Position numbers and translations under genes: made by a program
The notes under the pieces: generated by a model
The model's input: the letters and a program-made list of their open reading frames with translations, nothing else
The model's database searches: none
Told to the model about the DNA's origin: nothing
Assembly: GCA_963707915.1 (NCBI GenBank)
Contig: OY970178.1
Coordinates: 3,328,001-3,392,000, forward strand
DNA from: Candidatus Eiseniibacteriota bacterium
GTDB taxonomy: Bacteria; Eisenbacteria; RBG-16-71-46
DNA length: 64,000 nucleotides
Reading direction: 5' to 3'
Shown here: positions 13,210-58,540 of the stretch, one piece after another
Numbering within the stretch: position 1 is the first letter of the stretch
Layout of the letters: each line of letters starts with the position of its first letter

Positions 13210-13249
13210 CGGAGAGGTGCTGGAGCGGTTGAACAGGACGGTCTCGAAA
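13210..13249 (+). repeat. att core copy 2: 5' half of tRNA-Ser(CGA), 40 bp
   Basis: Exact match to 9934-9973 and 58449-58488. Confidence 0.95.
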
Positions 13250-21722: not shown

Positions 21723-21980
21723 ATGGACACGCAGGACAAAGTAAAGACCGTCACGATCATCGTGGAAGGCACTCCGCACGAGTGGCCCAAGGGTGAGATC
21801 ACCTACGCGGAGGTCGTCACTCTTGAAGTGCCGGACTACGCGCAGCACCCGGAGATCACGTACTCGGTGACCTACAAGCGCGGGCACGGCGAGAAGCCCG
21901 AAGGGATTCTCGTGAAAGGCGGCTCGGTCAAGGTAAAGGACGGGATGATCTTCCGTGTTTCAGAAACTGGTCAGTCATAA
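21723..21980 (+). CDS. Multiubiquitin-domain ubiquitin-like protein
   Basis: Beta-grasp pattern VTIIVEG...ITYAEVV...YSVTY...VKVKDGMIFRV, ending TGQS. Strong AAGGAG RBS. Confidence 0.85.
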   Translation: MDTQDKVKTVTIIVEGTPHEWPKGEITYAEVVTLEVPDYAQHPEITYSVTYKRGHGEKPEGILVKGGSVKVKDGMIFRVSETGQS

Positions 21981-30281: not shown

Positions 30282-31721
30282 ATGAGCACCGTGATGCTCG
30301 TCGACCTGCCTTACGCGCGCGGCGAGTACAACGAGCCGCTGGCGGTTGAGTTTTTGGCTGCGCAGTTAGTCGAGCGCACGGGGGCAACTACCGCAATCCT
30401 CGCCTTAGATCGGGGCTTCTCGGCCTCCGTCCTGACCGAGGCCATTCTGACTCTGAGGCCGGATCTTGTCGCGCTGTCCACGAAGCTCGATAGTATCACG
30501 CTGCTCCCCGAAGTTGGCGACGCGGTGCGGCGCAGCGGAATCAGATGCAGTGTGGTCATCGGTGGCATCGCTGCGACAATTGCACCAACCGAAACATTGG
30601 CGGCGCTAGGAATGCCTGAGGCAATCTGTGTTGTTGGAGAAGGCGAGGATGTCCTGTGTCAGGTCGTCCTCGGACTCGGTGCGGAAGGCCCAACGGATGG
30701 CGGGGAGAGTACCCCCTTGGGGCCCAACAGAGTCATCGGATCACCGCCCTCTTCCAGGTACCCACTCAGCATGCCCGCCGACCGGAGTTTGCTTGGCCGT
30801 ACCATCGCCTCGCGCGGCATCGCGCGTTGCGAAGCAAGCAGAGGTTGTCCGTGGGGCAAGTGCACTTTTTGCGTCATCGGGCGGAAGTACGGTGCGACCA
30901 CTTGGCGACCCCGTCCCCCAATCAGAGTAGTAGAAGAACTTGACCGAATTGCCGCGATGGGGGTGGAGATGGTGTACTTCACCGACGAGGACTTCATCGG
31001 CGGTGATGCCGAACGCGCGCTGTGGATTGCTGAACATGTACTAGAGCGCAAGGCCGAGGGACGCATCCCCGAGACCTTCCGACTTTGGTGTTCGACTAGC
31101 GTGCTGAACATCCTCGGTCGCTATGACGACCCTGCACGCGTTCGCGCGGCACTCGTCAGGCTCAAGACCGCCGGACTCGCGGGTGTGTTCCTCGGCGTCG
31201 AATCGGGTAGCCCCACCCAACTCAAGCGCTATGCAAAGGGTGCAACCGTCGCCCAGAACGAAATGGCCCTCTGCATACTTGAGGAGATGGGGTTGGAAGC
31301 GGACGTCGGCTTCATCATGTTCGACCCCTTTGTTACCATCGAGGAGCTTGCGGAGAACACGGCCTTTATTCGCCGAACCAGTCTCAAGGATGGGTTCTCT
31401 CGCTTGGGGAAGCCGGTTCGGCTCACGCCGTATACGAGCCTTACGTCCCGTGCGATACGGCATGGGCTTTGTCGAAGTCAACTCTCCATTGATACGCTAT
31501 CGTACCCGTACCACTTCGCTGACGCACGCACCGCGGCGGTCTTCGAAGAGTTCTCGACTTGGGAGCAACGCACGGCACCTCGGGCCTATGACCTCCAATC
31601 GGTTCTTCGCGCAAACGGCTACACCACCGAGGGCGCATATAAAGCCAGGAGCGACCTCGTGGCAATGCGTAGGGAGCAGCTCGACAAACTCGCTGAGCTT
31701 ATCGAGCTGGCCAAGCGCTAG
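30282..31721 (+). CDS. B12-binding radical SAM protein
   Basis: EPLAVEFLAA, IGGIAAT, VGEGE, SRGCPWGKCTFC, FTDEDF, GVESG and GFIMFDP motifs. Confidence 0.9.
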   Translation: MSTVMLVDLPYARGEYNEPLAVEFLAAQLVERTGATTAILALDRGFSASVLTEAILTLRPDLVALSTKLDSITLLPEVGDAVRRSGIRCSVVIGGIAATIAPTETLAALGMPEAICVVGEGEDVLCQVVLGLGAEGPTDGGESTPLGPNRVIGSPPSSRYPLSMPADRSLLGRTIASRGIARCEASRGCPWGKCTFCVIGRKYGATTWRPRPPIRVVEELDRIAAMGVEMVYFTDEDFIGGDAERALWIAEHVLERKAEGRIPETFRLWCSTSVLNILGRYDDPARVRAALVRLKTAGLAGVFLGVESGSPTQLKRYAKGATVAQNEMALCILEEMGLEADVGFIMFDPFVTIEELAENTAFIRRTSLKDGFSRLGKPVRLTPYTSLTSRAIRHGLCRSQLSIDTLSYPYHFADARTAAVFEEFSTWEQRTAPRAYDLQSVLRANGYTTEGAYKARSDLVAMRREQLDKLAELIELAKR

Positions 31722-31924
31722 CGATGCCACCTCGGCCGCAACAAGCCAACCCCGTAGGCCTCGGGGGCAGCAACCTCGATCACCTTGTTCGACGCATGCG
31801 GTGTGCGGTACGGTATGCAGTTGCCGTTGAGGGAAATGACTGGGGCGCGGCGACTTCGCTGCAAGACGCCAGGTTCGTCCGAGCAATCGGACCCCCAGCC
31901 TAGACTGCGGAACGCAAGCAAGAC

Positions 31925-32317
31925 TCACTCTAAGTACGTGATCTCTCCCTCTTTGTAGCCAGGGGCGAGCACGGTGAAGAAGCACAAATCCGAATCGCCT
32001 AGATTTCGGATGCTCAGCGCGTCACCAGATTTCACATAGATAAAGACTGGATGCTCTGGATCAGCAGTGAATGGGCCGCTCACTGAAGTCGCGGTCCTTA
32101 CCTCGAACTGGCCACCGAAAAGGAAGAGGACTTCGTCGCCGCTATTGGGTCTATTCTGAAAGTGGTGACTTTGTTGCTCTCTCGGTCGAACCCGAGCAAA
32201 GACAGCTGTCGCATTAGGCGTATCACTCAGAATTCTACCGTGGAGGTTCTCCTCCTGAAAGAACTCCTCGGGTCGCTCGGTGACTCTGATGATTTGTGTT
32301 TCGATCATTTCGCTCAT
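31925..32317 (-). CDS. Cupin-domain protein
   Basis: HHFQ...GDEVLFLFGG...SIRNLGDSDLCFFTV cupin pattern. Confidence 0.75.
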   Translation of the reverse strand: MSEMIETQIIRVTERPEEFFQEENLHGRILSDTPNATAVFARVRPREQQSHHFQNRPNSGDEVLFLFGGQFEVRTATSVSGPFTADPEHPVFIYVKSGDALSIRNLGDSDLCFFTVLAPGYKEGEITYLE

Positions 32318-32424
32318 ATAGCGCCCACCGGGTTATTGGCTAAAGTGGCCTGTACAGGAGAAGGCTAGCACAAACGCTCTCGCGCCGCCACTCGGCAATC
32401 ACGGTCAGAGGAGGATGACAGCTT

Positions 32425-33252
32425 ATGCGCCCAGCCGATATCGAACAAGTCCTCGCACTGAACCGCGCCCATTGGGAGGCAGCCAGCAAGGTCCACGCAT
32501 CATCTCCATATTATCAAGTGGATGCCGTTCGTGCTGGAGGCTGTAGCCTAAGTGAGGTCGAACTCGCCGAACTCGGCAGCGTTGCTGGCCAGAGAGGTCT
32601 CCACGTCCAATGCGGCATTGGCTTGGAGACAATCTCGCTTGTTCGGCTCGGAGCTGCGATGACGGGGGTCGACTTCGCACCGTCGGCCGTCGAGCAAGCT
32701 CAGATGCTAGCTAACGAATGCGGTGTGTCGGCTGAGTTCCGTGTGGCCGACGTACTTGATCTTAAGAACATATCACCTGAACCGTTTGACTTCATCTACA
32801 CGTCCCACGGAGTGCTTAGATGGCTACCAGCACTTGGCACGTGGGCGGCGGGACTCTATCGCCACTTACGGCCGGGAGGGCTACTGTATGTGTTCGAGAT
32901 ACACCCGTTGGTGTACCGAATTCGCAAGCTCGATGCGACGAGTGTCGTGTTAGGAGGCAACTACTTTCTTGAGAGCCCCCGGGTCGTCAGACTTGCCTCT
33001 ACGCATGCGGGTAATATAGCCCTTGGCGATGCCATGCGTGTGGTTCACACGGATTGGTCCATAGGTACGCTTCTGACGCACCTCCTCGACGCGGGGCTCT
33101 GCCTTCAGAGCTACCATGAGCATGGGGGATGCAGCTATAATAGGAACGGGTGGTTTCCAAGGCGGGTTGGAGGACTGTGGCACCCCGTAGCCGAGACACT
33201 GCCAATGCCGTTGTCGTTCTCCCTGAGACTCCGCAGACCAACGGCCGTCTAG
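32425..33252 (+). CDS. Class I SAM-dependent methyltransferase
   Basis: LHVQCGIGLE, GVDF, FDFIYTSHGVLRW and LRPGGLLYVFEIHP motifs. Confidence 0.88.
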   Translation: MRPADIEQVLALNRAHWEAASKVHASSPYYQVDAVRAGGCSLSEVELAELGSVAGQRGLHVQCGIGLETISLVRLGAAMTGVDFAPSAVEQAQMLANECGVSAEFRVADVLDLKNISPEPFDFIYTSHGVLRWLPALGTWAAGLYRHLRPGGLLYVFEIHPLVYRIRKLDATSVVLGGNYFLESPRVVRLASTHAGNIALGDAMRVVHTDWSIGTLLTHLLDAGLCLQSYHEHGGCSYNRNGWFPRRVGGLWHPVAETLPMPLSFSLRLRRPTAV

Positions 33253-33316
33253 GCTGCGGACGCCCGCGTGACGGAGTCTCAGATGTTGCCGGGCATGGTC
33301 GAGCGTTACATAGGAG

Positions 33317-34057
33317 GTGCGCTACGTGACCTCAGCACGAGATGAATTGTTCGTGGTGACGGGAGGGACTCAAGGGATTGGCCTTGCCATAGCGCAGGCG
33401 GCAGCTGCCAGTGGCCGGTCCGAGAGCGTTATCGTGGTCTCAAGGCATCCGGGGGTCGAGGGAGATGGTTCCTGGGAACATGTGGCTGCGGACCTGTCGA
33501 CGCGTCCCGGTATTGATGCGGCGATAGCAGGCATACGCTCCTATCAGCGCCCGGTGCGCGTCCTCGTGAACAACGCCGGGGCCATATTGGAGAACAACGC
33601 GTTTAGCGCGCTCACCTGGGAGACGATGTTGGCGAGTATTGTCCTGCATTCGATCGCGCCCGTCCTCTTGACGCGAGGTCTCGAGAAGGAGCTCAGGGCT
33701 GCTCAGGATGCGAGCGTGATCAATATCGGGTCAATTTATGGCGGAATACCAGATCCGGAGGTGTTCGCCTATGTGTGCGGGAAGGCGAGCCTTCCTATTG
33801 TGACGGAAATGATGGCGAGAGCACTTGCTCCAGACGTCCGCGTCAACTGCGTCCAGCCTGGGCATATTGAGACCGCCATGACACGGGCGGCCACCGCTGA
33901 ATTCCGGCAACACGTGATTGCGCATACTGATGTGCAGAGGCTTGGGGAGCCATCTGAAGTCGCGGCCGTCGTGATGTTTCTAGCGTCGGCAGCGTCAGGG
34001 TTTATTAACGGGACGAGTATACGCCTGGATGGCGGGTATTGGGGCGGGGTGTCGTGA
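33317..34057 (+). CDS. SDR family oxidoreductase
   Basis: TGGTQGIG, NNAG, NIGS, YxxxK (YVCGK) and VNCVQPG motifs. The start may be 33326. Confidence 0.9.
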   Translation: MRYVTSARDELFVVTGGTQGIGLAIAQAAAASGRSESVIVVSRHPGVEGDGSWEHVAADLSTRPGIDAAIAGIRSYQRPVRVLVNNAGAILENNAFSALTWETMLASIVLHSIAPVLLTRGLEKELRAAQDASVINIGSIYGGIPDPEVFAYVCGKASLPIVTEMMARALAPDVRVNCVQPGHIETAMTRAATAEFRQHVIAHTDVQRLGEPSEVAAVVMFLASAASGFINGTSIRLDGGYWGGVS

Positions 34058-42119: not shown

Positions 42120-43010
42120 GTGCCGGGCAGCACCGTTCACACCGTTGGAGAGCCGCAGCGGCTTGGCGCAAAGCCGGTACTCCGCTGGGCAGGTAGCAAG
42201 CGCAAGCAGCTGGCCCGATTGAGGACCTTCTGGTCGGCGGACCACGTCCGATACGTCGAGCCATTCGTTGGCTCTGCTTGCCTGTTCTTTGAACTGGCCC
42301 CCACCAGCGCGATCTTGGGTGACACAAATGCCCAGCTAGTGGAGTTCTACACCGTCCTCCGCACCGACCCGCGCCGATTGCACCGACGCTTGGCGCACAT
42401 CCCCAGAGATGTCGCGTCCTACTACAAGTGGCGCGAGATGGTCCCCGCGAGGTTGGACAAGGAAACGCGGGCCCTGAGGTTCCTCTATCTCAACCGCAAC
42501 TGCTTCAACGGGATCTACCGAACCAACGTCAAGGGCGAGTTCAATGTTCCGTTTGGCAAGAAAGTGGGAGCATACCCAACCGCAATTGACTTCGCGCGCT
42601 GCGCCGATCTGCTGAAGCACGTCAAGCTGGTTGCTCAGGACTTCGAGAAGACTCTGGAAGGAGTTGGCTCGGGTGACTTCGTTTACCTGGATCCCCCCTA
42701 CGCGCTGGACTCGCGAAGGGTGTTTCGTCAGTACGGACCAGGATCATTCAAGACGACGGACGTAGCTCGGCTCGGCAAGTCCCTCAAGCGGGCGCATGCA
42801 CGAGGTGCGCATTTCCTCGTTTCCTACGCAGACTGTACGGCCTCTCGCGTCCTGGCGAGGGAGTGGGTCTCGGTTCGCCTGCCGATCCAACGCCATGTCG
42901 CGGGTTTCGCGGACGAACGCAGGCGGGCCTATGAGTGGCTCATCTCCAACCAGCCGATACCTTCGGGAGTTGGAAGTAAGACTCCAAAGCGAACGGAGCC
43001 CAGGGCATGA
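42120..43010 (+). CDS. Dam-family (D12) DNA adenine methyltransferase
   Basis: LRWAGSK, EPFVGS, LNRNCFNGIYR and YLDPPY motifs. Confidence 0.9.
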   Translation: MPGSTVHTVGEPQRLGAKPVLRWAGSKRKQLARLRTFWSADHVRYVEPFVGSACLFFELAPTSAILGDTNAQLVEFYTVLRTDPRRLHRRLAHIPRDVASYYKWREMVPARLDKETRALRFLYLNRNCFNGIYRTNVKGEFNVPFGKKVGAYPTAIDFARCADLLKHVKLVAQDFEKTLEGVGSGDFVYLDPPYALDSRRVFRQYGPGSFKTTDVARLGKSLKRAHARGAHFLVSYADCTASRVLAREWVSVRLPIQRHVAGFADERRRAYEWLISNQPIPSGVGSKTPKRTEPRA

Positions 43011-43972
43011 GCAAGAAACCACATGACTATGGGGTACGGGTGATCGGCGTGAAGGAGATCGCGACGGCGAGCCTGTATGCGAATCCTCACAACCCCCGTC
43101 GTCTCTTCGACAGGCAGGACATGGACGCCCTGCGCGACTCCATTGACAAGCTTGGCATCCTCGTGCCCCTTACGGTCTATAGGGAAGCCCGGTCTGGTCA
43201 CTACGTAATCCTCGATGGACAACGTCGATGGATGTGCGCGACCGAGCTGAAATTGAAGGTCGTTCCTGTCAACGAAGTTGCCGAGCCTGATCTTGTCCAG
43301 AATATTGTGACGATGTTCCAGATTCATCGGCTTCGAAGAGACTGGGAGCTAATGCCGACGGCGCTCAAACTCCAACTGCTCATGAATGAGCTGGATGAGA
43401 AGAACCCCCGGCGCTTGGCCGAACTCACAGCCCTCGATGAAGCAGTGGTCGTGCGCTGCAAGAAGCTCTTGTCCTACCCCAAGCGCTACCAGGACATGAT
43501 GCTAACCGCGGAGCCGAGCAGCCGGATCAAGGCGGATTTCTTCATCGAACTATATGTGGTTCGAAATGATCGTTTCGTGAACGGGCTTGAGTGGTACGAC
43601 CGGAACAACTTCACGGACGCCATGCTAGAGAAGATCGAGGTCGGCGGCCTGAAGTCTGTGACCGACTTCCGCAAGGTAAAACAGCACATAAACAACGCAG
43701 TCAAGGCAAACAAGAATGTGGTCATCGCACGTCGACTTCGGGAATTCGCGCAGGATCCAGTTCTTACCACAGACCATCTTGACATCGACTCGGCCAGAAT
43801 CGCGACGGGCGCGCGAAAGATGATTGCCGCGGTCGAGAAACTCCACGCGCAGATTGATTCTATTGAGCTCGAGGAGTATGTCGGCGAGAACGAGATGTGG
43901 GAGGGCCTGAAGAAACTATCTGAGCTGATCCGCAAGCGCCTTCGTGCTCTGGGCTGGAGGCTTGATCAATGA
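43007..43972 (+). CDS. ParB/Srx N-terminal domain protein
   Basis: NPHNPRR, GILVPLTV and ILDGQRRW motifs. ATGA overlaps on both sides. Confidence 0.85.
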   Translation: MSKKPHDYGVRVIGVKEIATASLYANPHNPRRLFDRQDMDALRDSIDKLGILVPLTVYREARSGHYVILDGQRRWMCATELKLKVVPVNEVAEPDLVQNIVTMFQIHRLRRDWELMPTALKLQLLMNELDEKNPRRLAELTALDEAVVVRCKKLLSYPKRYQDMMLTAEPSSRIKADFFIELYVVRNDRFVNGLEWYDRNNFTDAMLEKIEVGGLKSVTDFRKVKQHINNAVKANKNVVIARRLREFAQDPVLTTDHLDIDSARIATGARKMIAAVEKLHAQIDSIELEEYVGENEMWEGLKKLSELIRKRLRALGWRLDQ

Positions 43973-44796
43973 GGGTGCCTCGGCCGCCCGGCGCCTCTAT
44001 CGACAAGAAACGCATGGCCAGGTGGAAGAACGAATTCACCGCCTACAGGAGCTCGGTGACCGAATTCTCCATCTCCAGCTGGCTTGACCAGTTCAAGGCG
44101 CATGAACGGGACACTGCCGCAAGAGTGCTCGACGCGGTCGAGTTCTATGGTGACGAGCGCATTGCCACGGCATTTCGGAAGGGGCTCGAAGCGATCCCGG
44201 GGTGGAGCAGCACGCAGAGCGAACGCTCAGGCCGTTGGAGGTTCGCACCCTTTTCCCGCACCCCAGGCGAGAGTGGCGATGCAATGATGCACCGCTTCCG
44301 GATGGCCAACAGGCTGACCGGCAAGGCGCACGATGGCATGTTCAAGTACGCAAGCGAACTGATGGACGAGAAGCTCGGACCGGAAGACACGGTAATTCTG
44401 GTCGACGACTTCGTGGCAACTGGGGACTCGGTGTGCTCGAAGTGGGCCGACGGGTTCGAGGAATTGGTCGGAGAGGCTGGGTCGGTGTTTCTGGTGCTCG
44501 TGGCGGCCGTAACTTCTGCTCAGAAGCGGATCATGAAAGAGACTGGGCTGACCGTGCTCGCCGCCCATGATCTTGGCAAGGCTGACAACGTATTTGAGGA
44601 TGGCTGTCGGCACTTCAAGCCGGCCGAGAAGGCGTGCCTGCTGCGCTACGGAGCAATCGCAGATAAGAAGCGGCCAAAGGGCTACGGGGACTGCGGGCTG
44701 GTCGTTGTATTTCAGCACCGGTGCCCTAACAACTCATTGCCGATCCTGCACGCGGAACACAAGAAATGGACGGCGCTGTTCCCTCGGAACAGCTAG
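43969..44796 (+). CDS. Phosphoribosyltransferase-like (PRTase-CE type) protein
   Basis: WLDQF, ESG, ILVDDFVATG, GYG and PNNSLPIL...WTALFPR motifs. Confidence 0.8.
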   Translation: MRVPRPPGASIDKKRMARWKNEFTAYRSSVTEFSISSWLDQFKAHERDTAARVLDAVEFYGDERIATAFRKGLEAIPGWSSTQSERSGRWRFAPFSRTPGESGDAMMHRFRMANRLTGKAHDGMFKYASELMDEKLGPEDTVILVDDFVATGDSVCSKWADGFEELVGEAGSVFLVLVAAVTSAQKRIMKETGLTVLAAHDLGKADNVFEDGCRHFKPAEKACLLRYGAIADKKRPKGYGDCGLVVVFQHRCPNNSLPILHAEHKKWTALFPRNS

Positions 44797-49695: not shown

Positions 49696-51216
49696 CTAAC
49701 GGAGGCGTGGCAACGGGGTCCGCACCCGGTAGTACCGTTGATTCCCGCGGCGCACTTCGATGAGGTCTTCTCTGATGGCGCCCCGCAGTCGACCAATCCG
49801 TTTTCGTGCCGCCTCCAGACTGCGGATCCCCTTCAGGTCGTGCTTGACATCGTAGCTGCGAGCTTCGTGTTGGCCGTCGGCCTGACGATCGAGTAGATAC
49901 CGAAGCAGCTCGACCTCTGAGCGACGGATCTTGCTTACGGCCTCTCCCGTGCTCAGGTCGCAGACGGTCCCGCTCTGTGGACGGACCAAGTGGCTCGCCA
50001 GCTGTATCTCCGGCTCCTGCAAGTTGCGGAGTTGAAGCACTAAGTCCGTCACGGCCCGCTGGAAGTCCTTGAGCCGGAATGCCTGCTGGTATGGATGCGG
50101 GCCCGTGAGCTCCACAACACGGTGGAGTGCTTTCTCCAACTTCTCGCGCGTTGAGTAGAGCATGCGCCTGCTGAGGTAGCGGGGCTCCCTGAGCAGGTCC
50201 TCAGCCAGTTGCCGGTAGAGGATCGCTTGGGGCGGGTCGAGGGACACGATCAGCGCCATGGCGCGGCCGAAGAACTCCCGTGCTTTCTCGAGGTCCCCCT
50301 CGTGACCGCGCTCAAGGTGCAGCCGGGCCAAATCCTTCAGCGGGTAGACCATCATCCTCTTCATGGACATCTGCTCGGCGATGGCGAGCGCAGCCCGGAA
50401 GTCCTCCTCGGCGCCGCGCAAGTCGCCGCGAGCGAATCGAAGGTCAGCGCGGCCCATGTAGGCAGCGTGCAACGTTCCCGGCATCGGTTCCTCGAGACAG
50501 CCTGCAATCACGGCCTCGTAGATTGCGGCGGCTTCATCGAGCTTACCGAGCGTCTTGAGCACACCGGCGCGACGCTCATCGATCGTGCGCACCAAGCGGG
50601 GAGCGTTCAGCGGTAGCGCCAGTTCGCGGGCGCGCCGCTGCCACTCCAGGGCCTCGTCCGGGCGCTCAAGGACTGCCGACAGCCGCCCGACGTCCGACGC
50701 CGTCGTCGCGGCGCGGCGCCACTGTTCGGTTTCGATGGCGCGACGGTGTGCCTCCACCATCCTCGCACGGGCGCGTTCAAAGTCGCCCTCAAGCTCGTAG
50801 CGGTGGGCGAAGAGCGCCTCCACGTCAGCCCCGCGACTGGCAAGCTTGGGACTCTTCTGAATCAGGCGTTGCAGTTCCTCCAGCGCCTGGCCGCCTTCAG
50901 CGAAACGAGCCTGCTGGTGAAGCATGAAGGCGCGGTGGTGGTAGGACGTGTAGATCTGCCAGGCCGGCGCGCGCTTCGCGGCGCTGTGACGCTCAAACGC
51001 CCCGAACAAGCGCAGAGCATCTGTGTATTCCCCGCGCTGGTATGCCCCTTCCGCTCGCACCCACAGCTCGTCGGCGGACGGTCCCGGCGGTTCCCCGGCC
51101 GACAGCGTGGACGCCAAGCGCATCACGGCGTCCGAGTCGCCGCGGTGGGCGGCGGCCAGAGCCTTCGTGATGGTGGCCTTGGGGCTGGTGGGCATGGTCA
51201 GTATCTCCACATCCAT
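49696..51216 (-). CDS. TPR-repeat protein with C-terminal winged-HTH (putative transcriptional regulator)
   Basis: Many TPR-like helical hairpins. OmpR-like tail (EVELLRYLL...ARKRIGRLRGAI...RYYRV). Start at 51216 or 51195. Confidence 0.75.
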   Translation of the reverse strand: MDVEILTMPTSPKATITKALAAAHRGDSDAVMRLASTLSAGEPPGPSADELWVRAEGAYQRGEYTDALRLFGAFERHSAAKRAPAWQIYTSYHHRAFMLHQQARFAEGGQALEELQRLIQKSPKLASRGADVEALFAHRYELEGDFERARARMVEAHRRAIETEQWRRAATTASDVGRLSAVLERPDEALEWQRRARELALPLNAPRLVRTIDERRAGVLKTLGKLDEAAAIYEAVIAGCLEEPMPGTLHAAYMGRADLRFARGDLRGAEEDFRAALAIAEQMSMKRMMVYPLKDLARLHLERGHEGDLEKAREFFGRAMALIVSLDPPQAILYRQLAEDLLREPRYLSRRMLYSTREKLEKALHRVVELTGPHPYQQAFRLKDFQRAVTDLVLQLRNLQEPEIQLASHLVRPQSGTVCDLSTGEAVSKIRRSEVELLRYLLDRQADGQHEARSYDVKHDLKGIRSLEAARKRIGRLRGAIREDLIEVRRGNQRYYRVRTPLPRLR

Positions 51217-51430
51217 TCTACCTCTCCTGCCGTTCGGCTCCATGTGGACAAGACATGCGTGTAGGTCCGTTGTCCAGTCGAGCCGCCGTACACCCCGACA
51301 CTGGATCTCGGAGGGCAAGACACCGAGGTCCAGCTCAAGCCGGGGTGAGCTCCCGCGACGGCGTGACGCACACGACCGTCCGCAGCACCGCGAAGACGCG
51401 CTTCAGAAGTCCCACACGAGGGTCACGACC

Positions 51431-51496
51431 ATGAACGCGAACAGGGTGCTGGTGGGCGACGACCGGGATCTGATTCCGGCTGGCGGCTTCCACTAG
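51431..51496 (+). CDS. 21-aa peptide MNANRVLVGDDRDLIPAGGFH (candidate precursor or modifier tag)
   Basis: ATG preceded by GAGG at RBS spacing. First ORF of the divergent operon, with a GG motif two residues from the end. Followed by a stem-loop. Confidence 0.55.
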   Translation: MNANRVLVGDDRDLIPAGGFH

Positions 51497-51504
51497 CAGT
51501 AGCT

Positions 51505-51548
51505 CCCGGGCCGGGTGGCGGCACTCCGCCGTCGCCCGGCGGCCCGGG
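51505..51548 (+). promoter_or_regulatory. Stem-loop after the peptide gene
   Basis: GCCGGGTGGCGG (51510-51521) pairs with CCGTCGCCCGGC (51529-51540). An alternative pairing is CCCGGGCC/GGCCCGGG. Confidence 0.55.
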
Positions 51549-51583
51549 AACCTGGGCGCGGTTCTAATCGGGAGGGCATTGAG

Positions 51584-51946
51584 TTGTGGTGGCTGATCGG
51601 TCTGCTAGCGGCGCTGGCGGCATCCACCCAAGACAGCACCCGGAACACGGGGGTCAGCGCAGCGAGAAGCCCAGTGTCTGATAACTCGCGCCTGTTGACC
51701 TACCGCTCCCGCGACGGCCGCTCCTTCTTCCGGTTCCGCTTCTCGCCATTTGGCGCCGGCGTGCGGATCTTCATCCTCGAGTTCCCAAATCCACAGATCG
51801 GCTCCTGCCACGTGCTGCACGACGACCGCGGCGCGGCCTACATCTGCTGGTCACGGGCCATCAACTCCCTGTCTGACGCGAAGGCGGTCGCAGCGCTCTG
51901 GGCCGAGGCAACGCTCGTCTACCAGCGCACCGGCCACGTCTTCTAA
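51584..51946 (+). CDS. Small protein with N-terminal hydrophobic anchor and possible E2/UBC-like core
   Basis: TTG start with GGAGG RBS. Beta-meander, then H-x9-YICW, then helix SLSDAKAVAALW. TAATG overlap with the next gene. Confidence 0.6.
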   Translation: MWWLIGLLAALAASTQDSTRNTGVSAARSPVSDNSRLLTYRSRDGRSFFRFRFSPFGAGVRIFILEFPNPQIGSCHVLHDDRGAAYICWSRAINSLSDAKAVAALWAEATLVYQRTGHVF

Positions 51947-53478
51947 TGGAGGCTACCAACTTGATCAAGTTGAGCATCGTTTCGCACGGCCTCGTCTTGA
52001 AGGAGGGGGGATTCGGCCCTGCTGTGGCAGAGCCCGCCCAGGTGATGCGGTTCACCGCATCCGCGCACCGTCAGATCATGGGCGCGATCGGCACGAAGGA
52101 GCCCGAGAACGGGATGCCGCTCGGTGGCGACCCGGGCGACGGCATCGTCCGCCACGTCATCTTCGACGACAGCGGCGAGCGGTCCAGCGGCACCTACTCG
52201 CCCGACCATGTCCGCCTGACCGCACTGCTGGACGATTGGTGGAGGCCTTCGGGGATCCGCCTGCTGGGGTTTGTCCACTCGCATCCGGGCCGATTCGCGC
52301 GCCCTTCCGACGGGGATCTGAAGTACGCCGGCGAGATCCTCGAGGCCAACCCGCACCTCAACCGGTTCCTGATGCCCATCGTGACCGTTGAGCCAAAGCC
52401 GGTCGTGCACCCGTTCGTCGTGGTCCGGACTGCCAGGGGCGTCGTGGTGAAGCCGGCTGTGCTGGAGGTCCTCGACGAGGTGCTGGTCGCGCCGGGGGAG
52501 AAGGCCACGCCGCCGGTGAAGACCGTGACCAAGACGGAGTCGCCCCGTGCCATCCGTGAGGCGACCTTCCAGCGGGTGGTTAGGGCTTACGACCTCCCGC
52601 ACCTGCGCTACTGCCGCGTGGTCGTTCCTGGTGATGGGGGTGCTGCTGGCTACGTCGAGGATCTCGTGCGGGCGGGCATCCACGACCTAGTGCTCATTGA
52701 TCCCGATGTTGTCACTGCCACGAACCTCGCCACCCAGCAGGTCTACCGCCGAGACCTGGGCCGGCCAAAGGTCGAGGCGCTCGCCGACCGACTGCGTGAC
52801 ATCAACCCTGCCGTCGAAGTGCTGGCCATCCAGCGGGACTTTAATGAGTTCACCGACGCCGAGATCGAATCGTTGCTCGGGCTCGACTGCGCCCGACCCC
52901 CGATCCGCACGCTCGTGTGCGGCTGCACCGACAACTTCTACGCCCAGGCGCGCGTCAACCGCGTCGGCCTGCAGTTCGGCGTGCCCACGCTCTGTGCGCA
53001 GGTCTACGCCGAGGGCCGGGGCGTCGAGATCACCTTCACCTACCCGGGCATCACCCCGGCATGCCATCGCTGCGTCCTGCGGTCGCGCTACGACGCCTAC
53101 CTGAAGGAGGGCTACACCAACACCGTGACGTCCGACGGCACGCCGGTCGGCTGCACGACACGGCTGAACGCGACCAAGTTCTTCGTGGCCATGGCCTTGC
53201 TGCACCACGGCACGGCGCATCCGCGCTGGGGCCGGACGCTGGAGCGCATCGGGAACCGCAACCTGGTGCAGCTGCGGCTTGACCCCGACTTGGAACTCCC
53301 GGTGTTCGACCGCGTGCTGGCCGGAGACAGGGCTCGCATCTTCACGGACGAGGCCGTGTGGCTCCCGCAGTTGCCCGAAGGCCGGGCTACCGGGCGCGCC
53401 CCTTGTCCCGACTGTGGCGGTACGGGCGACCTGCGTGCGGCCATCGGCTCAATCCCGGACACCCGGCTGCCCCGATGA
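51946..53478 (+). CDS. JAB (MPN+) peptidase - ThiF/E1 fusion protein
   Basis: E...FVHSHP...PSDGD JAB motif, then GDGGAAG, IDPDVV..TNLATQ, GCTDN, PACHRC and a terminal CPDC. Confidence 0.88.
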   Translation: MEATNLIKLSIVSHGLVLKEGGFGPAVAEPAQVMRFTASAHRQIMGAIGTKEPENGMPLGGDPGDGIVRHVIFDDSGERSSGTYSPDHVRLTALLDDWWRPSGIRLLGFVHSHPGRFARPSDGDLKYAGEILEANPHLNRFLMPIVTVEPKPVVHPFVVVRTARGVVVKPAVLEVLDEVLVAPGEKATPPVKTVTKTESPRAIREATFQRVVRAYDLPHLRYCRVVVPGDGGAAGYVEDLVRAGIHDLVLIDPDVVTATNLATQQVYRRDLGRPKVEALADRLRDINPAVEVLAIQRDFNEFTDAEIESLLGLDCARPPIRTLVCGCTDNFYAQARVNRVGLQFGVPTLCAQVYAEGRGVEITFTYPGITPACHRCVLRSRYDAYLKEGYTNTVTSDGTPVGCTTRLNATKFFVAMALLHHGTAHPRWGRTLERIGNRNLVQLRLDPDLELPVFDRVLAGDRARIFTDEAVWLPQLPEGRATGRAPCPDCGGTGDLRAAIGSIPDTRLPR

Positions 53479-53561: not shown

Positions 53562-54167
53562 ATGCGCCGCCAGTACGCCCTCATCTATGCCGACCCGCCG
53601 TGGCGCTACAACAGCAAGCGCCACGGCTACGGTGGCGCCGAGGACCATTACCCGACGATGGCCTTGGAGGACATCAAGGCCATCCGGGTACCGGCGGCTG
53701 ATGACTGCGCGCTGTTCCTTTGGGCCACCATGCCCTTGCTCCGACAGGCGTTCGAGGTCATCGACGCCTGGGGCTTCAAGTACAAGACCACGGCGTTCTG
53801 CTGGATGAAACAGACGAAGTCCGGCGTCGGCCTGGTCACGGGCCTTGGCTTCTGGACCAGGTCGAACGCCGAGGTCTGTCTGTTGGCGACACGGGGACGG
53901 CCGCGCCCCGTGTCCCACCGAGTCCACTCGGTCGTGATTGGTCCACGTCGACGTCACAGCCAGAAGCCAGACGAGGTCCGGGAGCGGATCGTGGAGCTGA
54001 TGGGCAACGTGCCGCGGCTGGAGATGTTCGCCCGGTCGCGGACGCCCGGCTGGGACGCCTGGGGCAATGAGGTCAAGAGCTCAGTCCAGATCCAGGTGCC
54101 CGGGCTGGACAGCGCCGGGCGCACGGAGTCTGAACGGAGGTGGCGCCGGTGCTCGATCGCCTCCTGA
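53562..54167 (+). CDS. MT-A70 family adenine methyltransferase
   Basis: IYADPPW, HYPTM, LFLWAT, WGFKYKT, HSQKP and WDAWGNE motifs. Confidence 0.92.
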   Translation: MRRQYALIYADPPWRYNSKRHGYGGAEDHYPTMALEDIKAIRVPAADDCALFLWATMPLLRQAFEVIDAWGFKYKTTAFCWMKQTKSGVGLVTGLGFWTRSNAEVCLLATRGRPRPVSHRVHSVVIGPRRRHSQKPDEVRERIVELMGNVPRLEMFARSRTPGWDAWGNEVKSSVQIQVPGLDSAGRTESERRWRRCSIAS

Positions 54168-54520
54168 AGCTGATCGTCACCCTGACCCTGCTGTTCTTCC
54201 TGCTGCAGGCGGTCATCGGAGTCCTGGTCCGCGTCCTTGACGCGGCCCTCCATGGGGCCGCCTCCGCCCTCGGGCACGCTGGGAACTTCCTCGGCAACGT
54301 TCTGGTGATCGTAGTGGAGGTCATCTTCTTGGTCGGGCTCATCGTCCGAGGGGCGCAGTTCGTTGCCAACCGGGATCCTCGTGCAGCTCGGGAACGAGCG
54401 ACACGAGATCGAGCCGTTCGCCAGCGTGTCCGCCGTCCGACCGAAGGCGTGCCGCCGGTCGAGAGTCACGCCGAGGTGCTGGACGACCCCGACCCGGCTA
54501 TCGGGGAGGAGCGCGAATGA
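54149..54520 (+). CDS. Two-TM membrane protein in the mobilization operon
   Basis: GGAGG RBS, two hydrophobic helices and an ATGA overlap with the ATPase. Confidence 0.65.
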   Translation: MLDRLLKLIVTLTLLFFLLQAVIGVLVRVLDAALHGAASALGHAGNFLGNVLVIVVEVIFLVGLIVRGAQFVANRDPRAARERATRDRAVRQRVRRPTEGVPPVESHAEVLDDPDPAIGEERE

Positions 54521-56070
54521 TGGTCGAGCATCTCGCCGCCCAGCTGCGCCGGCTCCTCAAGGGCTCCGAAGCGGACACCGCGAGGCGTTGGCACGCCACC
54601 ACCGAGCGCGCGCGGAACGCCGACGCTCACGCCCGCCGCGACGCGTTTCTTCGCCAGATGCGCGCCACGCCCGGGGACGGGAAGGTGCTGCTCGGCCGCG
54701 CGCAAGCGCGCGAGGGCGAGTTCCAGTGGTGCGGCATGCCGCTGCCGACACTCTGCTCCATGCACCTCGGCATCTCTGGCGCGACTGGCACGGGCAAGAG
54801 CTTCATGGTCGCATCGCAGCTCTTTCAGCTCGTCACGCTCGGCGTGCCGGTCATCCTCACGGACATGAAGTCTGAACTCGCCGACCTGATGTTGAACGTG
54901 GTCGTCCCCGCGGTCGTTGCCCGCGGTATGGAAGATCTGATCGACCGGGTGCGCGTCGTTCGTCCATTCGATGCAGGGCGCGTGCCCTTGCTCCGTCTGA
55001 CTGAGCCTGAGCCTCGAGTCTCTCGGCAGATCCAGAGCATGAACATCGCCCAGGGCCTGAGCGAATCCGTCGGCGAGGGGCTGGGTGTGCGCATGTTGCG
55101 GGCGATGTTGCCCATGGCGGGCTTGGCCGTGGAGCGCAACTTGCCGCTCCCGGTGTTGACGGACTGGCTGCGCTCGCCTGAGGTATTCGCGCGGGCGGCA
55201 GCCTCGTCTTCCGATCCGATCGTCCGCTCGTATGCTCTTCACGAACTGCCGCGAGAGAACCGTAGCTCGCTGGACGCGCTTCGGGCCCGGCTCGACCTGC
55301 TCTTCCACCTGCCCGAAGTGCGCGATGCGTTGTCCGCTCCGCGCTGCCTGTCGTTCGATGACGCTCTCGACTCGGGCGTGACCATCCTGGACTTCGGCTC
55401 GCCTCCGGGCGGCGCCGAGGACGCCATGAAGTTCATCGCCGGTCCGGTCGCGGGCCGGTTAGGGCGCGCTATCCTCTCGCGGCAGGTGTCGGATAACACG
55501 CCCCCCGCGGTCGTCGCGTTCGAAGAATTCCAGCAACTCCTCAGCTCGTATCAGGTCGAGATGTACAAGCGTCTACTGGCGCTTTGCCGTTTCAAACGCG
55601 TCTGTCTGTGGTTCTCGAACCAGCAGCCGGCCCAGATCGCTGAGGCAGACCGGACGCTGCTGCGCATCCTGCGCACCAACCTCGGAGCCGAGTGCATCTT
55701 CCGCTCGTCGGTCGAGGACGCCCGCACTCTGTCCGAGGGGCTCTCGACGCGTTCCGCCGACGAGACGTTGACGCAGGCGCGCAGCCGAGTCGTCGAAGAG
55801 ATCGCAACGCTCCCGAAGCGTTCGTTCTTCTTCTGGTTGCGAGATTCCGCGTTCGGGCCACAGCGGCTACAGAGCCCGCGCGTCAACATCGGTGCGCTCA
55901 AGGCGTCTGCGGCGTCGCTCACGCCCGAGCAACGCGAGCGCATTCGCCTCGGCACCGTCTCGATCGAGCGGCCGGTGGACAACCCGTCGCCTACGCCCGC
56001 GCCCGAACCGGATCCCCGGGTTGCGCCACTTCCCCCACAGAAGCGCCGCCGGGCGCCGCGGCTGGGGTAG
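54517..56070 (+). CDS. VirD4/TraD/HerA-like coupling ATPase
   Basis: Walker A GATGTGKS, DMKSE, Walker B-like FEEFQ and SNQQPAQI motifs. Confidence 0.82.
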   Translation: MMVEHLAAQLRRLLKGSEADTARRWHATTERARNADAHARRDAFLRQMRATPGDGKVLLGRAQAREGEFQWCGMPLPTLCSMHLGISGATGTGKSFMVASQLFQLVTLGVPVILTDMKSELADLMLNVVVPAVVARGMEDLIDRVRVVRPFDAGRVPLLRLTEPEPRVSRQIQSMNIAQGLSESVGEGLGVRMLRAMLPMAGLAVERNLPLPVLTDWLRSPEVFARAAASSSDPIVRSYALHELPRENRSSLDALRARLDLLFHLPEVRDALSAPRCLSFDDALDSGVTILDFGSPPGGAEDAMKFIAGPVAGRLGRAILSRQVSDNTPPAVVAFEEFQQLLSSYQVEMYKRLLALCRFKRVCLWFSNQQPAQIAEADRTLLRILRTNLGAECIFRSSVEDARTLSEGLSTRSADETLTQARSRVVEEIATLPKRSFFFWLRDSAFGPQRLQSPRVNIGALKASAASLTPEQRERIRLGTVSIERPVDNPSPTPAPEPDPRVAPLPPQKRRRAPRLG

Positions 56071-56083
56071 GGAGGACTCTTGC

Positions 56084-56401
56084 GTGCGAGAACTCCAAAC
56101 TGTGCTCCGGCTTCTGCGAGCCGTCTTGGGGATTGCCCTGTGGTGCGCGGGCACGGCGTGGCTCGGTGTCACGACGCTCTGGCGTGCGGGCATGTTGCTT
56201 TCGCGATTCAAGGCCATCTCCGCCCAGGTACGGCTCTGCCCCCGTGGGCACGAGGTGCCGGTCTACAGGCTGTGGGACTGCCACTGCGGCAGCCGAGTCG
56301 AGGGCTGGGCATTCGCGCCCTGCTCGATCTGCCGCGAGACGGCCGGCTACGTCCCATGCCCGACCTGTGGCCTGCCCGTGAGGAATCCACTCCTGCCATG
56401 A
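56084..56401 (+). CDS. Small membrane-anchored Zn-ribbon protein
   Basis: GGAGGA RBS. TM segment, then CPRGH, CHCG, CSIC and CPTC. Confidence 0.65.
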   Translation: MRELQTVLRLLRAVLGIALWCAGTAWLGVTTLWRAGMLLSRFKAISAQVRLCPRGHEVPVYRLWDCHCGSRVEGWAFAPCSICRETAGYVPCPTCGLPVRNPLLP

Positions 56402-57186
56402 CCCCGCTCGTCCGTCGTCAGCCCCGCCATCACCGTCGCCGCGGCGTCGCCGTTCAGCTCACTGAGCGAGACGGAGCGGTGCTCCACGCCCTTGGTCGCT
56501 TCAGGCTTGCCCGGACGTCAGACCTCGTGGCCTACGCCTTCGCCGGAGTCCGGAAAGACACGGCCGCAGTCCGGCTCCGGCGGCTGTTCGACGGCCGCTT
56601 CCTGGCCGTGCTGCCGCCCGAGCAGGGCAAAGAGAACGTCTACCGCTTGGGGCCGGCCGGGAAGGTCCACCTCGCCGAGGAGGGAGTCGGTGTCGGTCGT
56701 GTTCCCCGTGGAGGACTCGAGCACCACCTCGCCATCGTCGAAACCTGGGTCGCCGTCGCCGGGCTCGACCGCCTCGAACTCGAGCGCGCTCTGCCCGACT
56801 GGGAGCTTCGCGAGCAGTTCAATACCGCCGAGCTGCACGTCGTGCCTGACCTCTTCCTTCTCGTCCGCGTTGGCGAACGGCAACACGCCGTCGCCGTCGA
56901 GGTCGACCGTGGCACCGAGTCGCTGGCCGTCCTCAACCGAAAGCTGGAGGCATATCGCTCGCTCTGGGGGCAGGCGCCTGGGCTGTTCGGCTACCGGCAG
57001 TTCGGCATCGCGCTCGTCTGCCACACCCCGGCCCGTCGTGCCCAGCTCGCCTCCGCACTCAAGAGAGCATGGGTTGTTCCGCATGTGTTGTGGACGTGTT
57101 CTGAAGGGCCGAATACCGCTGTGCATCAGCTCATTCAGGGATTGCTGGCTCCCCTTGAGGCCTCCCCTTACCCCAAGGGGACCTGA
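56398..57186 (+). CDS. Replication-relaxation (Replic_Relax) family protein
   Basis: LTERDGAVLHAL, RLRRL, YRLG, HHLAI, VPD and AVEVDRGTE motifs. Confidence 0.85.
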   Translation: MTPLVRRQPRHHRRRGVAVQLTERDGAVLHALGRFRLARTSDLVAYAFAGVRKDTAAVRLRRLFDGRFLAVLPPEQGKENVYRLGPAGKVHLAEEGVGVGRVPRGGLEHHLAIVETWVAVAGLDRLELERALPDWELREQFNTAELHVVPDLFLLVRVGERQHAVAVEVDRGTESLAVLNRKLEAYRSLWGQAPGLFGYRQFGIALVCHTPARRAQLASALKRAWVVPHVLWTCSEGPNTAVHQLIQGLLAPLEASPYPKGT

Positions 57187-57192: not shown

Positions 57193-57432
57193 ATGCGATC
57201 CGAGCGAGCAGAGCCTAACGACGAAGGTCGTGCTCTTGATCCGGCTGAAGCCGAGCGCGAACGAACTCTGCCGCACCTCCTCACGCTACCCGAGGTGGCG
57301 GTGTTCCTGAGCGTCAGCCCAAAGACCGTCCGGCGGTTGGTCAGTCGCGGTCTGCCGTGCGTACGTCTGGGCCGGGTGGTACGTTTCCGGCAGGCGGACC
57401 TTCTCCGGTTCGTGGAGGCACGGAAGGAATAG
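57193..57432 (+). CDS. xis: Excisionase (HTH_17)
   Basis: LLTLPEVAVFLSVSPKTVRRLV...VRLGRVVRF. Directly upstream of the integrase. Confidence 0.85.
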   Translation: MRSERAEPNDEGRALDPAEAERERTLPHLLTLPEVAVFLSVSPKTVRRLVSRGLPCVRLGRVVRFRQADLLRFVEARKE

Positions 57433-57435: not shown

Positions 57436-58416
57436 ATGCCAAAACGAATTCGGAACTTGGTCAAGCGCGGGAAGACGTACGTCTACCGCTACAAGGTGAA
57501 CGGCAGGACGGTCAGGCGAGTCCTCGGGGATGACTACGAGGAAGCTTGCCGACTGCTGCGCTCATTGAAAACCGATGTGACCCAGCCCGGTCCGGACGTC
57601 ACCGTCGAGGATGCCGCTCGGAGGTGGCTTTCGGGCTACGTTCCCACCGTGAGGCGCGAGCAGGACCAGCGTCTCGCGGCGCAGCGGGTCAAGGACTACC
57701 TCGTCCGCTGTCTGGGGTGCCTTCTGCTGCGGAAGCTCACCGGGGATCACGTCCGCGCCTATCGGCTGTGGCTTGAGAAGCACAAGCTGTCTGCGCAGTC
57801 GGTCAAGCATATCCTGTCTGATCTCCGGTGTCTGTTGAACTGGTGCGAGGACGTGGGGCTCACCGATCGGAGCGTCTTTCCCCGGCGCGTCCTTCCGAAG
57901 ATCCAGGAGCGGCCACCGGACCGCCTGACGGATGAGCAGGTAGAGCAGGTCTGCTCCCTGGAGGAACCGTACGGCTTCATTGCGCGGCTGCTCGTCTCCA
58001 CCGGAATTCGCTGGGGGGAGGCGGTGAGCGCGCAGGCGACCGATGTGCAGAACGGCTGGCTCGTCGTGCACCAGACCAAGAGCGGGAAGGTGCGACGCGT
58101 GCCCCTGACAGACGCGCTCGCGGCCCAACTGCGCTTGCGGGTGGGACGGCTGCTGCCGCTCCGCAACGCCGACGGCTTCGCGGTGCAGGTCCGGAAGCGG
58201 ACCGGCATCGAGGGGTTCCACGCGCACCAACTCCGGCACTCGTTCGCGTGCCGGTGGCTGGAGGCGGGGGGCAGCCTTGCGGCCCTGCAAGAGATTCTCG
58301 GGCACGCATCCATCGTGACGACCCAGCGATACGGTCGTCTCGGTGAGGCACATGTGTTGGCGGAAGCGCGGCGAATCCAGGGGCAAGGGGTCACATCGGG
58401 GGTCACACGAGGTTGA
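57436..58416 (+). CDS. int: Tyrosine recombinase / integrase
   Basis: TGIRWGE, TKSGK, HQLRHSF and LGHASIVTTQRY catalytic motifs. Ends 33 bp before the tRNA. Confidence 0.95.
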   Translation: MPKRIRNLVKRGKTYVYRYKVNGRTVRRVLGDDYEEACRLLRSLKTDVTQPGPDVTVEDAARRWLSGYVPTVRREQDQRLAAQRVKDYLVRCLGCLLLRKLTGDHVRAYRLWLEKHKLSAQSVKHILSDLRCLLNWCEDVGLTDRSVFPRRVLPKIQERPPDRLTDEQVEQVCSLEEPYGFIARLLVSTGIRWGEAVSAQATDVQNGWLVVHQTKSGKVRRVPLTDALAAQLRLRVGRLLPLRNADGFAVQVRKRTGIEGFHAHQLRHSFACRWLEAGGSLAALQEILGHASIVTTQRYGRLGEAHVLAEARRIQGQGVTSGVTRG

Positions 58417-58449
58417 CGAAACCTCTCTAAGTCGTGTAAACACGGCCCC

Positions 58450-58540
<91 letters not shown>

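Follow-up and report, generated by a model that had tools for sequence, protein, structure and literature searches.

To our knowledge, the characterised bacterial E1/E2 systems all conjugate a folded protein: Bil and Bub use a β-grasp ubiquitin-like protein (Ubl), and the type II cyclic-oligonucleotide-based antiphage signalling systems (CBASS) conjugate a whole enzyme. The subject of this study is a set of genes in a stretch of 64,000 nucleotides of a Candidatus Eiseniibacteriota genome (assembly GCA_963707915.1, contig OY970178.1, positions 3,328,001 to 3,392,000; hereafter the window), in which an E1 and an E2-like protein are encoded next to a peptide of 21 residues. The described system closest to it is Type I Bub (formerly 6E.1), the operons of which encode BubAB, BubCD and BubE (Ye et al., bioRxiv 10.1101/2024.11.21.623953). 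According to that preprint, BubCD is a fusion of a JAB peptidase and an E1; the JAB domain cuts a Ubl-E2 pre-protein after a conserved glycine, and the E1 has no catalytic cysteine.

We hold with middling confidence that the window encodes a Bub-like conjugation cassette of three genes in which a ribosomally made peptide of 21-25 residues takes the place of the Ubl. A bolder and only tentative proposal is that this peptide serves as a fold-less ubiquitin-like modifier, trimmed by the JAB peptidase, activated by a cysteine-less E1 and carried by an anchored cysteine E2, and that its ligation to an amine of a membrane-proximal protein or lipid controls the transfer, establishment or exclusion of the tRNA-Ser element in which the genes lie.

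The cassette and its products

The cassette is read from the forward strand. It begins with an open reading frame (ORF) of 21 codons, MNANRVLVGDDRDLIPAGGFH (51431-51496), which is followed by a GC-rich hairpin (51505-51548), by the TTG-initiated gene of an E2-like protein of 120 residues (51584-51946) and by the gene of a JAB/JAMM peptidase-E1/ThiF fusion of 510 residues (51946-53478), the ATG of which overlaps the stop codon of the small gene (TAATG). An initial annotation made from the bare sequence had proposed this succession of peptide ORF, stem-loop, small anchored protein and JAB-ThiF fusion, and every one of these features was recovered at its place. The same annotation saw no β-grasp Ubl gene in the operon, which a Pfam scan of the cassette proteins confirmed; a Multi_ubiq gene lies 30 kb away, at 21723-21980.

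Related loci were gathered with an alignment of the E2-like protein, which led to 26 metagenome loci, one genome locus (L005) and three places in two related genomes; a scan of genome contigs with the single JAB-E1 protein as query found no relative. L006 (a spurious 25-residue match in Collinsella), L031 and L032 were set aside. The peptide ORF was looked for in 28 loci, the window included, some of them near-duplicates (19 distinct core DNA sequences in 20 loci). Of the 25 related loci in which the sequence continues for more than 100 nt past the E2-like gene, 24 have a JAB-E1 gene 3' of it, the exception being L030. Together with L029 and L039, L030 belongs to a divergent clade whose small protein is 33-38% identical and has no N-terminal anchor. 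On the L030 contig this E2-like gene is present twice, the copies facing opposite ways (291-533 and 936-718), and there is no JAB-E1 gene; the contig is probably an inverted-duplication assembly artefact. In L035 the match to the JAB-E1 gene (1081-2506) is split between two frames, 1081-1539 and 1607-2506, which suggests a frameshift or an assembly error.

The peptide motif is present upstream of the small-protein gene in 25 of the 28 loci (24 by regular expression, L035 by eye), the initial annotation having named conserved short GG-ORFs upstream of homologous JAB-ThiF genes as a sign to look for; it was not found upstream of the E2-like gene in L029, L030 and L039. The ORF comprises 21-25 codons, with the exception of L034 (27) and L035 (33). 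An SD-like (Shine-Dalgarno) GAGG is located 7-10 nt 5' of the start, even in loci with otherwise unrelated upstream DNA; in the window it reads GAGGG, 8 nt 5' of the ATG. The consensus of 21 sequences is M.AT...LVRGDDRD[LF][IV]P[AP]GTFH with 0-2 variable residues at the end, in which D, P, G and F are invariant, and the core of the whole family can be written GDDRD[LF][IV]P[AP]G[T/S/G][FW][HR], again followed by 0-2 variable residues. Among the 19 distinct DNA sequences, the 13 core codons vary in 6, 2 and 11 columns at codon positions 1, 2 and 3, respectively, and pairwise codon differences in the core amount to 536 synonymous and 257 non-synonymous. Such a substitution pattern is indicative of selection on the translated product. 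The ORF is more than a chance one. No other ORF in the 3.6-Mb genome contains the motif, either C-terminal or internal.

The initial description of the product as a GG peptide proved to be mistaken, because Gly-Gly is restricted to the window, which is thus the exception; the family has Gly-Thr (Gly-Ser in L035), and its motif is P-x-G-[T/S/G]-[F/W]-[H/R]. Two further candidates were considered and rejected. Read-through of the stop codon, by which the peptide would be fused to the E2-like protein, would have to pass two in-frame stops in the case of the window, and the loci do not share a conserved frame, most of the gaps between the two genes (77-119 nt) not being multiples of three. In L029, an ORF upstream of the E2-like gene ends in LLIPGGDRA, but it is a long methyltransferase-like ORF with an NPPF motif, of which this sequence is the C-terminus, and not a peptide gene. 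The locus also appears in environmental sequence data. A sediment DNA run (X1) contains a near-identical copy of 51205-51626, peptide ORF included, and a wetland metatranscriptome (run X20) yields a 224-nt contig that aligns with 51596-51819, a segment of the E2-like gene, and differs from it in 3 places; DNA carry-over is possible in the latter, and metatranscriptome contigs show neither strand nor level.

The start of the small protein was placed at the TTG at 51584 (120 residues) and not at the GTG at 51515, because 114 homologues, mostly of 117-119 residues, cover 100% of the 120-residue form and a GGAGG is found 8 nt upstream. The protein consists of the hydrophobic anchor already noticed in the initial annotation (residues 1-14), a disordered linker and a domain of ~85 residues with His76 and Cys88. 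A profile search of 1.84 billion cluster representatives gave a family of 627 members at E<=1e-3, of which 184 also pass E<=1e-10. Of 150 representatives, 149 retain His76, 147 retain Cys88 and 146 have both residues.

An AlphaFold (AF2) model built from 28 sequences, in which the predicted local distance difference test (pLDDT) exceeds 90 from residue 35 onwards, displays three long strands, a short strand bearing the histidine, a short strand preceding the cysteine and one long helix. His76 and Cys88 are placed between the last strands and the long helix, as in E2s. When the model was compared by VIA with 48,161 chains, it matched best the E2 of a Serratia CBASS (8hsb_B; Z 6.4, root-mean-square deviation 2.9, 88 aligned residues), with the Cap2 E2 domain (Z 5.1) in second place; of the 50 listed rows, at least 25 carry the titles of E2, UEV or RWD entries, including BubB. 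The small protein is predicted from this model to have a UBC/RWD-like fold. This reading rests on the enrichment of E2-type entries and not on the scores, because the Z-scores fall in an ambiguous range. The suggestion, made initially, that the protein is E2-like and should be compared with the UBC fold is in agreement with these matches and with the conserved His-Cys pair. In the ESM Atlas, PF26395 (E2-CBASS) is present in 17% of the members of a neighbour cluster, a lead only; the Pfam copy searched here did not include this family. A reading of the His, Cys and Arg residues as those of a sortase was rejected in view of the ~85-residue domain, its UBC-like topology and the absence of any sortase among the fold rows listed.

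A crude criterion detects an N-terminal hydrophobic segment in 65 of the 150 representatives. In the anchored members (n=67, window included) the segment has a median length of 20 residues, and 196 Lys or Arg residues follow it compared with 21 that precede it. Because the anchor obeys the positive-inside rule, the catalytic domain is predicted to face the cytoplasm, where it would be reachable by the E1.

Both domains of the fusion are recognised by Pfam (ThiF, 1.6e-21; Prok-JAB, 2.4e-5), the JAB domain at residues ~30-176 and the E1/ThiF domain, with two CxxC pairs, at ~200-510, whereas NCBIfam and PADLOC recognise its E1 part only. At least 656 homologues were found at E<=1e-10. The JAMM motif VHSHPGRFARPSDGD is readable directly in the fusion sequence and, as the initial annotation of a JAB-ThiF fusion implied, JAMM and adenylation motifs are both intact. 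In an alignment of 41 sequences, the residues of the zinc site (E ... HxH x7 S xx D) are invariant (H111, H113, S121 and D124) or nearly so (E54). The adenylation residues G229, G231, G232, D252, D254 and K275 are invariant and D329 nearly invariant, and the structural CxxC pairs C373/C376 and C487/C490 are invariant as well. Between C376 and C487 there is no invariant or nearly invariant cysteine; the conserved residues of this region are Y382, Y385, T395, S396, T399 and T404. The fusion is modelled with two domains (pLDDT 80). Foldseek places Citrobacter BubCD chains first among its matches (E 4e-15 to 1e-13, 14-15% identity), followed by Cap2, UBA5, ThiF and MoeB, with MccB ranking 39th.

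The fusion (41-row alignment) was co-folded with the peptide (21-row alignment), ATP and two Zn. The score of 0.64 compares with 0.02 for the best of three controls; in a calibration carried out without ligands and with other alignments, 116 of 157 solved complexes reached this score, as did 2 of 215 mismatched pairs. In the best run, native peptide residues 11-21 (DRDLIPAGGFH) are located on the JAB domain, and Gly19 and Phe20 lie beside H111, S121, D124, Y84 and Y127, all of which are invariant. The model supports the notion that the conserved C-terminus of the peptide is a ligand or substrate of the JAB domain.

Proposed mechanism and alternative readings

From the conservation of the peptide and the selection acting on it, the domains, motifs and folds of the two proteins, the synteny and the modelled JAB contact, we infer a pathway that leads from cleavage and adenylation to a thioester and an acceptor. 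The peptide would be translated from its own SD sequence and ATG, and the hairpin behind it would probably set the share of transcripts reaching the enzyme genes. The JAB domain would bind the conserved C-terminal ...[LF][IV]P[AP]G[T/G]FH and trim it near Gly/Thr-Phe-His, and the E1 domain would adenylate the exposed carboxylate. The acyl group could then pass as a thioester to Cys88 of the E2-like protein, the domain of which would be cytoplasmic and tethered to the inner membrane. It seems possible that this protein hands the peptide to an acceptor near the membrane, perhaps a DNA-transfer protein encoded just downstream or another amine.

Several observations weigh against this pathway. Some concern the co-fold: the peptide chain used had 30 residues, 9 of them non-native N-terminal residues derived from in-frame upstream codons, three runs scored 0.64, 0.22 and 0.71 with a contact agreement of at least 0%, and the pLDDT of the partner was 43-50. 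Moreover, the best run places the peptide on the JAB domain and not in the E1 site, and adenylation is therefore without direct model support; of the co-folding suggested in the initial annotation, the JAB contact was obtained and the placement in the E1 site was not. Others concern the small protein. The VIA Z-scores (<=6.4) are, by the tool's own warning, within the range that unrelated folds reach, and Foldseek found no match to the protein in the PDB at E<=0.001. The protein has no match in Pfam, NCBIfam, PADLOC or PHROGs, Pfam likewise gives 0 hits, and thus no E2 family, for 50 of 50 sampled relatives, and no E2 is among the matches of its family in a profile search of PDB sequences. A comparison by hhalign of the family with DUF6791, the E2 domain of the island's own Bub operon, gave a probability of 0.1%. 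As to the peptide, 7 of the 22 full-length sequences end exactly at the histidine, and T/G-F-H is more conserved than a disposable tail should be. In the divergent clade the motif is missing beside the E2-like gene, which in L029 and L039 is nevertheless accompanied by the JAB-E1 gene; the enzymes can therefore exist without the peptide. Finally, no contig of one metatranscriptome run covers the peptide ORF.

Among the alternatives, the one that survives best is a pathway like those of peptides that are made on ribosomes and modified after translation (RiPPs), although we consider it unlikely. The peptide would be a precursor, trimmed by the JAB domain and modified by the ThiF domain through adenylation (of the C-terminus or a side chain), cyclisation or nucleotidylation, as by MccB, PaaA and GrcB; the product would be a small signal or antibiotic and not a tag on a macromolecule, with the Cys/His protein as an accessory or membrane export partner. 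The cassette resembles such a cluster in having a short, conserved, precursor-like ORF beside a ThiF-like enzyme with a hairpin between them, and the tandem double motif of L035, which ends in DDIPAGSFHGNDELPVGTWH, is reminiscent of multi-core precursors. Several RiPP classes are described in which a ThiF-like enzyme has a short ribosomal peptide as its substrate (PMC12596934, PMC12250964). However, the text of one of these reviews has no occurrence of JAB, JAMM or E2-like (PMC12596934), and it is a JAB domain that forms the N-terminus of the fusion, in which no RiPP recognition element (RRE) or peptide-clamp domain was found. Nor is a transporter or immunity gene conserved in the cassette, and Pfam detects no transporter family among the neighbours. 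The structures nearest to the fusion are those of conjugation E1s (BubCD, Cap2, UBA5), well ahead of MccB, and a conserved Cys/His protein of predicted UBC-like fold would suit a carrier enzyme.

The hairpin invites a different reading, in which the ORF and the hairpin form a cis-acting leader that controls the downstream enzyme and transfer genes and the peptide is not a substrate at all; this seems to us distinctly unlikely. In the conserved core of the hairpin, 51513-51522 pairs with 51528-51537. The fold of the surrounding window sequence has an energy of -52.4 kcal/mol (z = -2.0), and an 18-locus alignment yields a consensus stem of 10 bp in which 3 pairs show compensatory changes. The spacing is nearly constant, as might be expected of a leader: among the 21 loci in which the ORF is complete, 20 have 77-90 nt between the peptide stop and the E2-like start, and L034 has 119 nt. 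The cassette, moreover, stands at the head of the excision and transfer genes. A leader could also make use of the pairing, seen in the fold of the window, between the bases just after the peptide stop and the SD sequence of the E2-like gene, but this pairing is absent from the consensus structure. Moreover, 0-2 residues follow the histidine, so that the distance from motif to stop is not fixed, and the co-fold with the JAB domain, at 0.64 against 0.02 for the controls, involves exactly the conserved residues. All 25 loci of the main clade have the peptide and the three anchor-less divergent ones lack it, which also argues against a leader. The hairpin has no U-tract, and neither a sigma-70 promoter nor a canonical terminator is predicted in 51100-51700; we read the hairpin as a putative partial terminator or stability element, by which the proportion of peptide to enzymes would be set.

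A terminator-like hairpin directly 5' of the ORF in 11 loci would likewise be compatible with a leader. It belongs to a conserved element of ~70 nt that has a T-run at its end and lies directly 5' of the peptide SD sequence. The element occurs in two copies ~550-620 nt apart in L005 (3239/3780), L010 (655/1202), L020 (441/1065) and L033 (9482/10024), and as a single copy in L007, L009, L011, L016, L022, L023 and L025; it has no Rfam match. The window is without this element and has instead a GGGGTGAGCTCCC-type motif, common to L008, L013 and L015. Apart from tRNA and sub-threshold rows, Rfam has no family for the cassette and its surroundings, nor for eight related loci.

It is very doubtful that the tag is some other molecule, such as a ThiS/MoaD-type protein of the host or, as in type II CBASS, the tail at the C-terminus of a protein of the element, with the peptide as a pseudo-substrate occupying or regulating the JAB site: Iyer et al. 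2006 (PMC1779556) proposed that Ubl-less E1/E2/JAB operons use endogenous ThiS/MoaD, the best co-fold run has the peptide on the JAB domain only and the enzyme genes of the divergent clade stand without the motif, but no further ORF of the genome carries the motif, the peptide gene is tightly and universally linked to the enzymes within the main clade, and the conserved backbone contains no candidate β-grasp gene.

If the peptide is indeed a tag conjugated by the cassette, the body of ubiquitin would be dispensable for E1-E2 tagging, and the cassette would define a minimal tag handled by an E1-E2 pair. A large, unclassified family of often membrane-anchored Cys/His proteins would be added to the E2-like enzymes. 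Mobile elements would possess a tagging system of their own rather than one of host defence, and ubiquitin-type chemistry would be tied to the life cycle of integrative elements and not to phage defence. The system is small (three genes, ~2 kb) and directly testable, and could possibly provide an ATP-driven tool for peptide ligation.

The integrative element

Further genes follow the cassette on the same strand. An MT-A70 DNA methyltransferase gene (53562-54167) is a variable insert, also found in L023 and absent from L005, L027, L028, L033, L034 and L035. It is followed by genes for a small membrane protein of 126 residues without a Pfam family (54140-54520; found in L005, L023, L027, L028 and L035) and for a HerA/FtsK/TrwB-type P-loop ATPase, a putative DNA translocase (54517-56070; conserved in L005, L023, L033, L034 and L035). 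Then come a replication-relaxation protein (56080-57186; PF13814, 1.4e-20; phrog 'replication initiation by nicking'), an excisionase-type HTH_17 protein (57193-57432) and a tyrosine integrase (57436-58416), the identity of all three agreeing with synteny and that of the last two with a domain scan, and finally the gene for tRNA-Ser(CGA) (58450-58539).

The order of the integrase-proximal backbone is peptide, E2-like protein, JAB-E1, (MT-A70), small transmembrane protein, ATPase, Replic_Relax, Xis and Int. By tblastn, the ATPase, Replic_Relax, Xis and Int genes keep this order in L005, L033, L034 and L035, the four loci of the main clade that have 6 kb or more of downstream sequence, and the backbone order is kept to the contig end in L023, L027 and L028; none of the backbone genes was found in the divergent L039, the downstream sequence of which likewise extends to 6 kb or more. 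The ORFs of JAB-E1 and the transmembrane protein overlap in L005, and tRNA-Ser(CGA) lies 3' of the integrase in L034 and L035 as well. The cassette is part of the conserved backbone of a tRNA-Ser(CGA) integrative element, and its role is therefore probably in the transfer, establishment or competition of that element. The observation that the operon heads the transfer, xis and int genes, already made in the initial annotation, extends to the four main-clade loci that are long enough.

An attachment repeat of 40 nt, consisting of the first 39 nt of tRNA-Ser(CGA) and the preceding base, is present in three direct copies (9934-9973, 13210-13249 and 58449-58488). The copies bound, in tandem, a 3.2-kb segment with an AbiEii-type ATPase gene and one more gene, and an island of 45 kb. 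The repeat corresponds to the 5' half of the tRNA, which is unusual: most tRNA-targeting elements duplicate the 3' part. GC content at third codon positions (GC3) is lower inside the island, the content of which is mostly defence-type cargo.

The element is distributed over two phyla, being found in a relative of a 'Candidatus Eisenbacteria' metagenome-assembled genome (MAG) and in a Phycisphaeraceae MAG. The E2-like family is rare: it occurs in 3 of 61 relatives, in 3 of 206 genomes of the phylum and in 2 of 401 genomes sampled from the phylum of L005. No relative of the E2-like or JAB-E1 protein was found in the plasmids of PLSDB, and none in IMG/VR; phage records gave one weak partial match, with 25% identity over the E1 part.

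Upstream of the cassette, a divergently transcribed gene on the reverse strand (49696-51318) encodes a protein of 540 residues that had been taken for a TPR-helix-turn-helix (HTH) regulator by which the peptide might be sensed. The TPR repeats are real (TPR_12, 9.4e-12), but no HTH was detected at E<=5, the C-terminal 144 residues included. The gene is matched only in L008 and L012, over the first 40 residues, and BLASTP shows no relationship between its product and the proteins encoded upstream in the other loci. A role as an RRNPP-type regulator or conserved partner was rejected on these two grounds, the missing HTH and the lack of conservation beside the cassette.

Other parts of the island deserve mention. 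A complete Type II Bub-like operon (21723-23540) comprises Multi_ubiq (21723-21980), a DUF6791-ThiF E2-E1 fusion (21955-23142) and DUF6527 (23139-23540). Directly 5' of it lies the gene of a protein with a Cap15 cyclic-dinucleotide receptor domain (21039-21668), which is preceded by that of a 290-residue protein without a Pfam family. At 42120-44796, genes for a D12-class adenine methyltransferase, a ParB_N protein and a PRTase-CE protein stand in a row and resemble a conflict-system trio. A B12-binding radical SAM enzyme, a class I methyltransferase and a short-chain dehydrogenase are clustered at 30282-34057, inside the island, adjoining several proteins without a Pfam family.

Comparison with known systems

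The PRTRC cassette (ParB-related, ThiF-related) of plasmids and integrative and conjugative elements is another E1/E2/JAB-type set in a mobile backbone, and includes a Ubl-like protein; no NCBIfam PRTRC model matched any of six proteins scanned (E<=0.01). No peptide-based JAB-E1/E2 system turned up in full-text searches or in the consulted parts of PMC12596934, PMC12250964, PMC1779556 and the Bub preprint (10.1101/2024.11.21.623953), the supplementary tables of which could list related operons. This suggests that the peptide-carrying JAB-E1/E2 cassette is as yet undescribed. Its E2-like family is unclassified.

Like the cassette, MccB/MccA, PaaA/PaaP and GrcB combine a ribosomal peptide, between a few and a few tens of residues long, with an E1-superfamily adenylating enzyme encoded downstream of it; in those systems the carboxylate of the peptide is the site of action. 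According to PMC12596934 and PMC12250964, enzymes of the MccB/PaaA type have an N-terminal RRE or peptide clamp and no E2-like partner, whereas the cassette has a JAB domain, and their clusters include export or immunity genes, which the cassette lacks.

Type II CBASS (Cap2/Cap3) also has features in common with the cassette. Its E1/E2 acts not on a dedicated β-grasp protein but on a flexible C-terminal tail that is also handled by the JAB protein, as is proposed for the cassette, and the E2 of the E2-only CBASS (CdnG-E2, PDB 8hsb) is the best fold match to the small protein, with Cap2 second. The genes are arranged differently: CBASS has an E2-E1 fusion, a separate JAB and a CD-NTase, whereas the cassette has a JAB-E1 fusion, a separate E2-like protein and no CD-NTase. 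The proposed substrate differs too, being a free peptide in the cassette, and the PADLOC matches cover only the E1 part of the E1-E2 models.

The E2 domain of BubBD of Type II Bub (DUF6791) has no match to the E2-like family by hhalign. Type I Bub shares with the cassette an N-terminal JAB/JAMM domain fused to a ThiF/UBA5-like E1 without a conserved crossover cysteine, and a minimal E2 without C-terminal helices. The crossover loop of the Type I Bub E1 has a conserved tyrosine; in the fusion of the cassette, Y382 and Y385 are among the conserved residues of this region. The JAB of Type I Bub exposes the C-terminal glycine of the tag, which matches the role proposed for the JAB of the cassette, and both systems are found in mobile elements at tRNA genes. 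However, in Type I Bub a β-grasp Ubl is fused to the E2 (BubAB), whereas the cassette has a peptide of 21-25 residues on its own ORF. The Bub E2 has a serine with His or Asp, whereas the E2-like protein of the cassette is separate, membrane-anchored and equipped with Cys88 (147 of 150 representatives). DUF6527/BubE is part of Type I Bub and is not among the cassette or backbone genes, the only DUF6527 of the window being that of the separate Type II Bub operon. Bub is a defence locus, and the context of the cassette is the backbone of an element. With no Ubl-E2 fusion, no BubE and Cys instead of Ser, the cassette is not filed under Type I Bub; by analogy, it is nevertheless Type I Bub that it would work most like.

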